This document shows, piece by piece, positions 631-2,503 of a stretch of DNA of 64,000 nucleotides; the stretch's first letter is position 1, and every line of letters starts with the position of its first letter. Under the pieces are notes generated by a model. It was given only the letters and a program-made list of their open reading frames with translations. It was not told where the DNA came from and searched no databases. A program made the position numbers and the translations under genes. The DNA comes from Mayamaea pseudoterrestris (taxonomy: Eukaryota), in the NCBI GenBank assembly GCA_027923505.1, contig BROI01000002.1, positions 1,488,001 to 1,552,000 on the forward strand, given 5' to 3'.

Positions 631-1860
631 CTAATATTCCTCGACATCATGCTGTCGATGAATCGTGGGTGGCTCGCCTCCATTGGCCTGGAGCATTGAC
701 TCCCACAATTTTTCCATTACAAGCAAGCGCTGCGTCGACATGTCAATGCCTTGTAGAAACTGGACCCGCTCCGCTCCAGGGCTCAATGCTTGCAGCTGTT
801 GCATAACTAGCTGAGATGCGTGTTTCGCTTGGGCGAGTTTGATCTCACGCTCCTCTGGTCCCATGGATAACAGTTCCCCGAGAATTTCCTGATGGAGCTT
901 GGAAGCTTGCTTCGCCATGTCCCATTGACTTGCTTGCTCAGCGGCATTACCTTTCTGGGAATCCTCTCGTATATGCTCTGATGATGGTACGTTTACAGCT
1001 AGATTATCATTGCTTGTTGTCAATGTCGACGTTGCAATCACTTGCCCCGATGCCGCGTCAATAATCTGCTCGGAATATTCCACGTTGACGACGCGCGTGG
1101 AGCCTCCTTGATCATGATCGTTCAGACTCGACTTCATCGACTCCATGGTGGCGTTTTGAATGGCGGCACTTAATGTGGCGCCCATGTTTGCCAACAGACG
1201 AGTTAATTCCTCGTCGTTAGATGATGCTTCAAGTAGTCGCTTGATTTCCGCCGCTCCAAAGTCTGCATCGTAGCCAATGGCACGGAGGAACATTTGCTGA
1301 ATCCGTTCCAATCGCTCCTGCGGAAAGAATGGGGCTGGCAACGTTTCGTGCAAGTCGGCAAAAAGTGGTGCGCCAGACGAAAGGTGTGACTGGACGTTGG
1401 GCAGTCGGACTGCAACGTTGCACAAGCCAATGAATTCCACTAGATCCGACCGACTCATAGAACCTGATGACTTCAGTGATCGTTGTTTCCTTGCCGCATA
1501 TGATTGGACTTCCCATGAACATTCCGAGTGTAGCACTAATCGAGCAAAGGCAAGGCGAGCAGCTTCATTCATCTTGTCCATAACAGTCTTGACTGGGAGC
1601 GGCAGAAGTTCTTCTCGCGTTCCAAGCTTTTGTAAATGGGCTTGGACTTGACTCGTCGTAACATGCTTATCGCCAGACTCTTGTGCTGCGTTGTACTGGT
1701 TTATCCATTGCTCTAAACATGCAAGTTGCGTCGACAAGAGGCGCTGGCGAATCTCGGAAATGTCAAGTGCAGCAGCCGAAGCTTGATCCAAGACGAGTTC
1801 GTTCAGTGACTTCTCGGCCAATTCAAAGAATTCAATAAAAACAGAGTCGTTCAGTTCCAT
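631..1860 (-). CDS. Hypothetical protein (409 aa, helical)
   Basis: Long single ORF with ATG and protein-like composition; no family motif recognised. Confidence 0.7.
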   Translation of the reverse strand: MELNDSVFIEFFELAEKSLNELVLDQASAAALDISEIRQRLLSTQLACLEQWINQYNAAQESGDKHVTTSQVQAHLQKLGTREELLPLPVKTVMDKMNEAARLAFARLVLHSECSWEVQSYAARKQRSLKSSGSMSRSDLVEFIGLCNVAVRLPNVQSHLSSGAPLFADLHETLPAPFFPQERLERIQQMFLRAIGYDADFGAAEIKRLLEASSNDEELTRLLANMGATLSAAIQNATMESMKSSLNDHDQGGSTRVVNVEYSEQIIDAASGQVIATSTLTTSNDNLAVNVPSSEHIREDSQKGNAAEQASQWDMAKQASKLHQEILGELLSMGPEEREIKLAQAKHASQLVMQQLQALSPGAERVQFLQGIDMSTQRLLVMEKLWESMLQANGGEPPTIHRQHDVEEY

Positions 1861-1976: not shown

Positions 1977-1984
1977 TTTATATA
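1977..1984 (+). promoter_or_regulatory. TATA-like element upstream of the permuted tRNA
   Basis: TTTATATA about 30 nt upstream of the 3' half; function inferred from position. Confidence 0.45.
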
Positions 1985-2014
1985 GATTCTGAGAACCTTT
2001 TCAGCACGGTAATT

Positions 2015-2095
2015 TTCGAATGGTCGGGTGTTCGACTCACCCCTGGTGCTTCTTCCGATGCACTAGTAGCTCAGTGGCAGAGCGTTCGATTGCAG
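2015..2095 (+). tRNA. tRNA-Cys(GCA): Circularly permuted tRNA-Cys(GCA): 3' half 2015-2050, 9-nt spacer 2051-2059, 5' half 2060-2095
   Basis: 5' half is GCACTAG TA GCTC AGTGGCA GAGC G TTCGA TT GCA G. 3' half is T TCGAA TGGTC GGGTG TTCGACT CACCC CTGGTGC T. Joined, they give a 7-bp acceptor stem (GCACTAG/CTGGTGC), D stem GCTC/GAGC, anticodon stem TTCGA/TCGAA, T stem GGGTG/CACCC, anticodon GCA (2092-2094) and the Cys discriminator U73 (2050). Confidence 0.9.
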
Positions 2096-2100
2096 TCCAC

Positions 2101-2104
2101 TTTT
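2101..2104 (+). terminator. Putative RNA polymerase III terminator (T4)
   Basis: TTTT begins 6 nt after the end of the 5' half; a longer T run follows at about 2123-2128. Confidence 0.5.
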
Positions 2105-2503
2105 GCATATGCTTAATAACTCTTTTTTAAGTTAAAGCAGGGTCTTGCCAATTGTTATGACTGTTTCATCGTTATTGATCGCTATTACCGGTATATTACA
2201 GGAGCTTCGCGGCACCAAGCCTTTACCGCAGCGGTACTTCTGGATCACCAATCAGTAGTCGACAAAACGTCGACCCGTTTTGTACACGAAGTGCAATAGT
2301 TATCGTGAATTGCGTCACGATGTTCTTTAAATATAGGGAAAAGTGTTCGAAGAACACAAGCGGCTTCGATGGAACCAGTACACGGAACATCAAAGTCCAC
2401 GTCTCGACATGCTCACAACCCACGTGGAAGTTGGCATAGAAACGTGGGAGGTTCGCAAGTGTGATCATCCGCGATCCGCGACCACAATCATTGTCCATCA
2501 CGA

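Follow-up and report, generated by a model that had tools for sequence, protein, structure and literature searches.

[quoted passage not shown]

Can a tRNA gene whose 3′ half precedes its 5′ half serve as a working tRNA-Cys gene in the nucleus of a diatom? The question is raised by positions 2015–2095 (plus strand) of a 64-kb stretch of DNA, referred to throughout as the window. This is intron-poor eukaryotic DNA with a G+C content of 49.3%, its genes include RRP12 and a KH protein, and its RRP12 open reading frame is 100% identical to MPSEU_000170200 of Mayamaea pseudoterrestris, so that the diatom origin suggested in a preliminary description of the locus holds. By taxonomy M. pseudoterrestris is a raphid pennate diatom, and the word tRNA is absent from the paper reporting its genome (PMC9724779). 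Judged from the sequence, the locus is very probably such a gene: nuclear, circularly permuted in the type II (37/38) manner and able to supply this pennate diatom with tRNA-Cys(GCA).

As read from the sequence and from an in silico swap of the halves, the 3′ half (2015–2050, plus strand, 36 nt, tRNA positions 38–73) comprises position 38, the 3′ strand of the anticodon stem, the variable loop, the T arm, the 3′ acceptor strand and the discriminator T73, located at 2050. The 9-nt spacer TCTTCCGAT (2051–2059, plus strand) lies between this discriminator and position 1, and is followed by the 5′ half (2060–2095, plus strand, 36 nt, tRNA positions 1–37), containing the 5′ acceptor strand, the D arm, the 5′ strand of the anticodon stem and the anticodon loop up to G37, with the anticodon GCA at 2092–2094 (plus strand). 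A 3′ half, a short spacer and then a 5′ half on one strand is the layout of a type II (37/38) permuted gene. No CCA is encoded, TCT standing next to the discriminator, and the spacer is devoid of a T4 run, a CCA and a TATA-like signal. Once the two halves had been exchanged (by a script, from the window), ARAGORN returned a clean 72-nt tRNA-Cys(GCA) with an acceptor stem of 7 bp (one G-U), a D stem of 4 bp, anticodon and T stems of 5 bp each and a discriminator T, and with U8, G18G19, U33 and T54-T55-C56 all in place. The main identity elements recognized by CysRS are the GCA anticodon and the discriminator U73, and both are found here. The preliminary description had placed both halves exactly and had proposed this very swap as a check, and the ARAGORN call bears out the anticodon and discriminator it had assigned; of its claim that four stems pair across the halves, the presence of the stems stands, but pairing across the halves holds only for the acceptor and anticodon stems, the D stem being internal to the 5′ half and the T stem to the 3′ half.

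That standard scanners would overlook such a gene, as had also been anticipated, proved correct: in native order, the 64-kb window yielded no tRNA with ARAGORN and no Rfam family at gathering score. A permuted-aware scan, in which an acceptor pairing of at least 6/7 across a spacer of 0–40 nt, together with U8, T55 and C56, defined composites that were submitted to ARAGORN, gave one match in 1270 composites over both strands of the window, namely the gene at 2015–2095. The same scan of ten dinucleotide shuffles of the window (1157–1296 composites each) gave none.

Candidate transcription signals flank the gene, and neither is found inside its spacer. Upstream, a TATA-like box (TATATA, 1979–1984, plus strand) lies 36 nt 5′ of position 38 and, by analogy with Cyanidioschyzon merolae as described in section 5 of PMC3978253, would be an RNA polymerase III promoter element. 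Downstream, the trailer TCCAC and the TTTT that follows it (2096–2104, plus strand) place a T4 run at 2101–2104, 5 nt past G37, a putative Pol III terminator, and a second run (T6, 2123–2128, plus strand) read from the sequence is a possible back-up terminator. The leader ends in GGTAATT (2008–2014) directly before the 3′ half, and its GTAA (2009–2012, plus strand) pairs with anticodon-loop positions 32–35 (TTGC, 2090–2093) as the central 4-bp helix of an hBH motif. Indeed, RNAfold of 2003–2104 produced the permuted cloverleaf together with GUAA (2009–2012) paired to the UUGC of positions 32–35, leaving a 3-nt bulge (2013–2015, plus strand; U2013, U2014 and U38) unpaired in both the minimum-free-energy and the centroid folds. 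The junction accordingly presents an anticodon stem, a 3-nt bulge and a 4-bp helix (2009–2012/2090–2093), and the bulge is predicted to hold the 3′-splice-type cleavage site just 5′ of position 38. On its 5′ side the window's motif is only weakly formed, a strict outer helix amounting to a single C-G pair, and in this outer region RNAfold draws a pairing other than that of the strict motif; section 8 of PMC3978253 likewise describes a weak second bulge and outer helix in green-algal permuted tRNAs. Taken as a whole, the fold of 2003–2104 does not stand out from shuffled sequence, its z-score being −1.74, with 12 of 200 shuffles folding equally well.

These elements can be assembled into a plausible maturation pathway. 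RNA polymerase III would start approximately 25–30 nt past the TATA box at 1979–1984 and stop in the T4 at 2101–2104, giving a transcript composed of leader, 3′ half, 9-nt spacer, 5′ half and short trailer. This transcript would fold into a tRNA body in which GUAA and positions 32–35 create an hBH motif resembling that of a canonical 37/38 intron, whereupon the tRNA splicing endonuclease would cut 5′ of U38 and 3′ of G37, and a tRNA ligase would join G37 to U38 to form a circle. RNase P and tRNase Z would then excise the spacer, and CCA would be added. Transcription of the gene, its circular intermediate and aminoacylation of its product are predicted on this basis, and homologues of the Trl1-type ligase have been reported in diatoms, according to the accessible text of PMC4090602. 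The likeness to ordinary tRNA genes carrying a 37/38 intron is that the window's leader and trailer act as an opened intron, and, as in canonical pre-tRNAs (yeast rules, section 8 of PMC3978253), position 32 pairs with the base three nucleotides 5′ of the 3′ cut, with a 3-nt bulge. The two differ in that the window's gene order is rotated, so that ligation would yield a circle rather than a linear tRNA, and in that its A and B boxes are reversed.

Public sequencing data contain the same locus and close variants of it. Logan contigs from two runs belonging to different studies (X1, depth 122, and X2, depth 42, one of which may be the window's own source) span 1900–2200, each as one 1392-nt piece with at most one difference from the window, at 2141. 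A 151-nt contig from an algal metagenome (run X3) matches window positions 2058–2095, that is, two spacer bases and an identical 5′ half; 21 unrelated bases precede the match, which stops exactly at G37 and gives way to unrelated sequence with a T4 run five bases on, an arrangement compatible with a permuted gene whose spacer is longer, as far as so short a contig can show. A contig of run X4, from a closer relative, matches the window at 2006–2098 only, with five substitutions and two indels; it reads TTTAAATA where the window has TTTATATA at 1977–1984, and the flank between there and 2006 differs. Two of its itemized changes, at T-stem positions 64 and 65, would weaken the stem unless compensated; three of the five substitutions are itemized, so that compensation at 64/65 could not be read off.

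A broader set of relatives was obtained by scanning JGI metagenome contigs for a T loop, a gap of 20–49 nt and a D arm, with YTGCA at loop positions 32–36. This returned at least 122 stretches and at least 90 distinct matches, and most among the matches listed were an ordinary tRNA closely 5′ of an ordinary tRNA-Cys, some of these pairs belonging to dense tRNA arrays (L025, L069). At least 31 of them, however, pair across the halves in at least 6/7 positions of the acceptor stem and at least 4/5 of the anticodon stem, against a chance expectation estimated at about 0.1 (0.013 × 0.069 × 90). One of the 31 (L077) was rejected as a bacterial tandem with look-alike acceptors, a second (L068), which has neither terminator nor leader helix, was set aside as doubtful, and a third (L036) runs off the end of its locus and was left out of the alignment. 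The resulting alignment, A1, holds the window and 28 permuted loci from the matches listed, 29 in all. The commonest type among those matches shares the window's anticodon arm and has compensated changes in the T stem and the acceptor stem, while the spacers of the relatives listed range over 5–28 nt and are not conserved in sequence.

Within A1, changes on both sides of a pair occur in 7/7 acceptor, 3/5 anticodon-stem and 4/5 T-stem pairs, and 96.7% of cells are paired, as compared with 26–42% when the partners are slid; the pairing percentages of the acceptor and anticodon stems are inflated because these stems served as selection criteria, a circularity that does not extend to the range of compensated pair types. 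RNAalifold, unaided, drew the same four helices, the permuted cloverleaf, from the 29 aligned loci. Three further regularities involve features that were not selection criteria, namely the leader register, the terminator and the missing downstream 3′ half. The leader 4-mer ending two bases 5′ of position 38, which preserves the geometry of the bulge, pairs 4/4 with positions 32–35 in 19 of the 29 aligned loci, as against 0–1 of 29 for each of eight other registers, and the leader carries a G wherever position 32 is a C. A T4 run begins 0–14 nt past position 37 in 29/29 aligned loci, the background in the same loci being 8.2% of positions. Finally, no permuted locus listed has a 3′ half downstream of G37. 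All 29 aligned loci have the same anticodon and a T73, and U33 and G37 are invariant or nearly so. To judge from these aligned sequences, the whole permuted design is clearly under purifying selection across many relatives.

How such genes might be transcribed appears to vary among the relatives. Of the 29 aligned loci, 14 carry a TATA motif 34–59 nt 5′ of the gene, the window among them. At least eight permuted loci have no TATA motif and start 6–10 nt past the 3′ end of another tRNA gene: a tRNA-Ala(UGC) in L008, L017, L027, L030, L036, L082 and L105, and in L054 a tRNA-Leu(CAA), 7 nt away and itself preceded by a tRNA-Ala. None of the eight has a T run between the upstream tRNA and the permuted gene, the first such run lying past the Cys 5′ half. 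This spacing suggests that in the eight loci the permuted gene is co-transcribed from the internal promoter of the upstream tRNA, by which means the reversed order of A and B boxes would be sidestepped. Dicistronic Pol III units are known in the form of tRNA-tRNA pairs and of plant tRNA-snoRNA units; the eight loci resemble them in having a tRNA 6–10 nt upstream, whereas the window's gene, which has its own TATA box, lacks an upstream tRNA and stands alone, ARAGORN finding no other tRNA in the 64 kb. A literature search found no paper on a permuted tRNA driven by the internal promoter of an upstream tRNA. Four other loci (L003, at 949–1102, L004, L009 and L026; approximately 40% G+C) carry a near-identical tRNA-Ala(UGC), then 7–9 nt, then an ordinary tRNA-Cys(GCA), and the open reading frames flanking them had no Pfam match. 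This tandem of Ala and ordinary Cys may be the ancestral layout, and it points tentatively to an Ala-Cys dicistron as the setting of the permutation.

The organisms that carry the design were placed for two of the 28 metagenomic loci, by their nearest named relatives only. L008, a locus of the commonest type, adjoins a gene for mitochondrial EF-Ts whose nearest named relatives, at 52–58% identity, are the centric diatoms Discostella, Thalassiosira, Skeletonema and Cyclostephanos, and L060 adjoins a proteasome gene, encoding a widely conserved protein, that is nearest to those of P. tricornutum (64%) and F. cylindrus (66%). The protein search for L002 did not discriminate between Chlorophyta and Bacillariophyta. 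On the strength of the Mayamaea window, L008 and L060, the design is, as far as sequence affinity indicates, present in a pennate diatom, on at least one contig of centric-diatom affinity and on one of pennate affinity. Other matches point elsewhere: L056, L066 and L107, with 26-nt spacers and G+C-rich flanks, and L014, with a 12-nt spacer, fit the published genes of Ostreococcus lucimarinus and Micromonas pusilla in spacer length and composition.

This distribution bears upon a gap in the annotation of a model diatom. According to a survey based on tRNAscan, tRNA-Cys has been lost in P. tricornutum (PMC7678280), and a second paper describes the tRNA-Cys of this species as not annotatable; the permuted layout may explain the missing annotation. 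The two papers indirectly favor the suggestion in the preliminary description that the locus may be a hidden, possibly essential tRNA-Cys. Combining these observations, a wider proposal can be put forward, although we hold it tentatively and somewhat doubt it in its full extent: that the permuted gene is the sole nuclear tRNA-Cys of diatoms, predates the split of centrics and pennates and explains the Phaeodactylum gap, that in many diatoms it is promoterless behind tRNA-Ala(UGC), and that the permutation arose in an Ala-Cys dicistron.

For Mayamaea itself, the unbroken read contigs point to single-copy status, and the window gene is presumed to be the organism's only tRNA-Cys gene. It could conversely be functional and redundant, with ordinary tRNA-Cys genes elsewhere in the genome, in which case it would be neither hidden nor essential. 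Such genes do exist in other organisms directly 3′ of a near-identical tRNA-Ala, in the four tandem loci L003, L004, L009 and L026. However, the 1392-nt X1 and X2 contigs run unbroken across both halves, where a second identical half of at least 31 nt would presumably have produced a branch in the assembly graph, redundancy is hard to reconcile with the strong conservation of the permuted design, and P. tricornutum has no annotatable ordinary tRNA-Cys, so that we consider redundancy unlikely, albeit a serious contender.

A second alternative is that the locus is a non-functional relic, the decaying remnant of an ancestral tandem of ordinary tRNA-Cys genes whose outer halves were lost. A tandem origin is the published model for permuted genes (PMC3978253, accessible text), and duplicated units do occur and decay: directly 3′ of the intact unit of L017 lies a second, partial one (L017:205–370), consisting of the 3′ part of a tRNA-Ala and a permuted Cys, with decayed T and acceptor stems, an altered anticodon loop and no T4 terminator. 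This decayed copy shows what an unselected copy looks like, and the window gene looks quite different, with all stems and invariant tRNA positions intact and with a TATA box, leader register and terminator placed as in the 28 relatives, in which changes are compensatory; a relic is hence improbable. As a separate observation, ARAGORN reads across the second L017 copy as a tRNA-Cys with an 86-nt intron.

Still less probable is a tRNA-like element that does not decode but acts, for example, as a processing signal or a regulatory RNA for neighboring genes. Such a role is conceivable, expression and charging of the window gene being predictions from its sequence, but the element has its own terminator and retains all parts relevant to decoding, its GCA, U33, G37 and discriminator T being invariant or nearly so among the relatives. 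An assembly artefact, for instance a collapsed tandem array of ordinary tRNA-Cys genes, is very unlikely and scarcely credible as an account of the locus, since the X1 and X2 contigs from different studies span 1900–2200 unbroken, with the same arrangement and unique flanks that contradict a tandem collapse, and the arrangement recurs on contigs from many unrelated metagenomes. The preferred reading remains that of a working permuted tRNA-Cys gene.

Permuted tRNA genes as such are well documented. The accessible text of a 2014 review by Soma (PMC3978253) counts 34 of them, in C. merolae, four Mamiellophyceae, the B. natans nucleomorph and Thermofilum pendens, in agreement with the list of red alga, prasinophytes, chlorarachniophyte nucleomorph and Thermofilum in the preliminary description, and gives their spacers as 1–74 bp. 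Auxenochlorella was added in 2025 (PMC12636532, accessible text). A 2026 review of photosynthetic eukaryotes (PMC13578239) places permuted genes, in its accessible text, in the red and green lineages and a nucleomorph only, and the accessible part of the PlantRNA 2.0 preprint mentions them for C. merolae only. A search of mostly open-access literature found no permuted tRNA genes reported in diatoms or other stramenopiles, consistent with the earlier statement that no such report was known. According to Table 1 of PMC3978253, which draws on Maruyama et al. 2010, type II permuted Cys(GCA) genes are on record for O. lucimarinus, O. tauri and M. pusilla. Since this combination of isotype, anticodon and 37/38 junction has already been published for Ostreococcus and Micromonas, only the lineage is new.

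The Cys genes of Mamiellophyceae share with the window gene the isotype, anticodon, 37/38 junction, hBH motif, AT-rich or TATA-containing upstream region, T stretch and absence of an intron. They belong, however, to another supergroup, the host of the window gene being a stramenopile nucleus, and their spacers are 12, 26 and 38 nt long as against 9 nt in the window. Moreover, the acceptor, anticodon-stem and T-arm sequences of the window are unrelated to those of L056, L066 and L107, three loci with the same spacer length (26 nt) as O. lucimarinus; 72 nt are too few to tell whether the window and prasinophyte genes descend from one ancestor or arose separately. With the genes of C. merolae, as described in the accessible text of PMC3978253, the window gene shares the order of 3′ half, spacer and 5′ half, a TATA-like box no more than 50 bp upstream, a T stretch and a spacer free of signals. 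In C. merolae the circular intermediate was shown by experiment (Soma et al. 2007, from PMC3978253, accessible text), whereas for the window gene such an intermediate is predicted. C. merolae further has 11 permuted genes with four junction positions, none of them Cys, and lacks TFIIIC box-binding subunits (PMC3978253, accessible text), as compared with one gene at the canonical junction within the 64 kb of the window.

If diatom nuclei hold a conserved permuted gene, the known range of such genes would grow to include the stramenopiles, a major and ecologically dominant group, and the standing gap in the tRNA-Cys annotation of Phaeodactylum would have a testable answer. Because this layout escapes scanners, namely ARAGORN and Rfam in the present analysis and tRNAscan-SE in the papers cited, an essential decoder would be missing from diatom tRNA sets as well as from codon-adaptation analyses and synthetic-biology designs. 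The loci lying 6–10 nt behind a tRNA-Ala suggest a promoter-sharing solution, and co-transcription of this kind, if true, would be a new escape from the problem of reversed A and B boxes.

Several further loci in the metagenome scan were noted for their own sake. L027 holds two tandem units of Ala and permuted Cys (496–557 and 1328–1389, minus strand), approximately 830 nt apart on a 1.5-kb contig. Two permuted-looking tRNA-Cys loci at approximately 1000–1090, L034 (minus strand, with a TATA box immediately 5′ and extra unpaired bases in the 3′ half) and L044 (plus strand, with an irregular 5′ acceptor strand), failed the filter; either could be a variant, a pseudogene or a form bearing an intron. 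Very dense tRNA arrays, in which ARAGORN calls as many as 12 genes within 2 kb, occur in L025, L048, L069 and L101, one array being on a 319-kb contig; they contain odd anticodons together with an ordinary tRNA-Cys whose T arm equals that of the window, and may represent a giant virus or another tRNA-rich element. Finally, L078 carries a permuted tRNA-Cys whose G37 runs straight into a T8 terminator; its contig has a G+C content of 75% and probably derives from a different, G+C-rich algal lineage.
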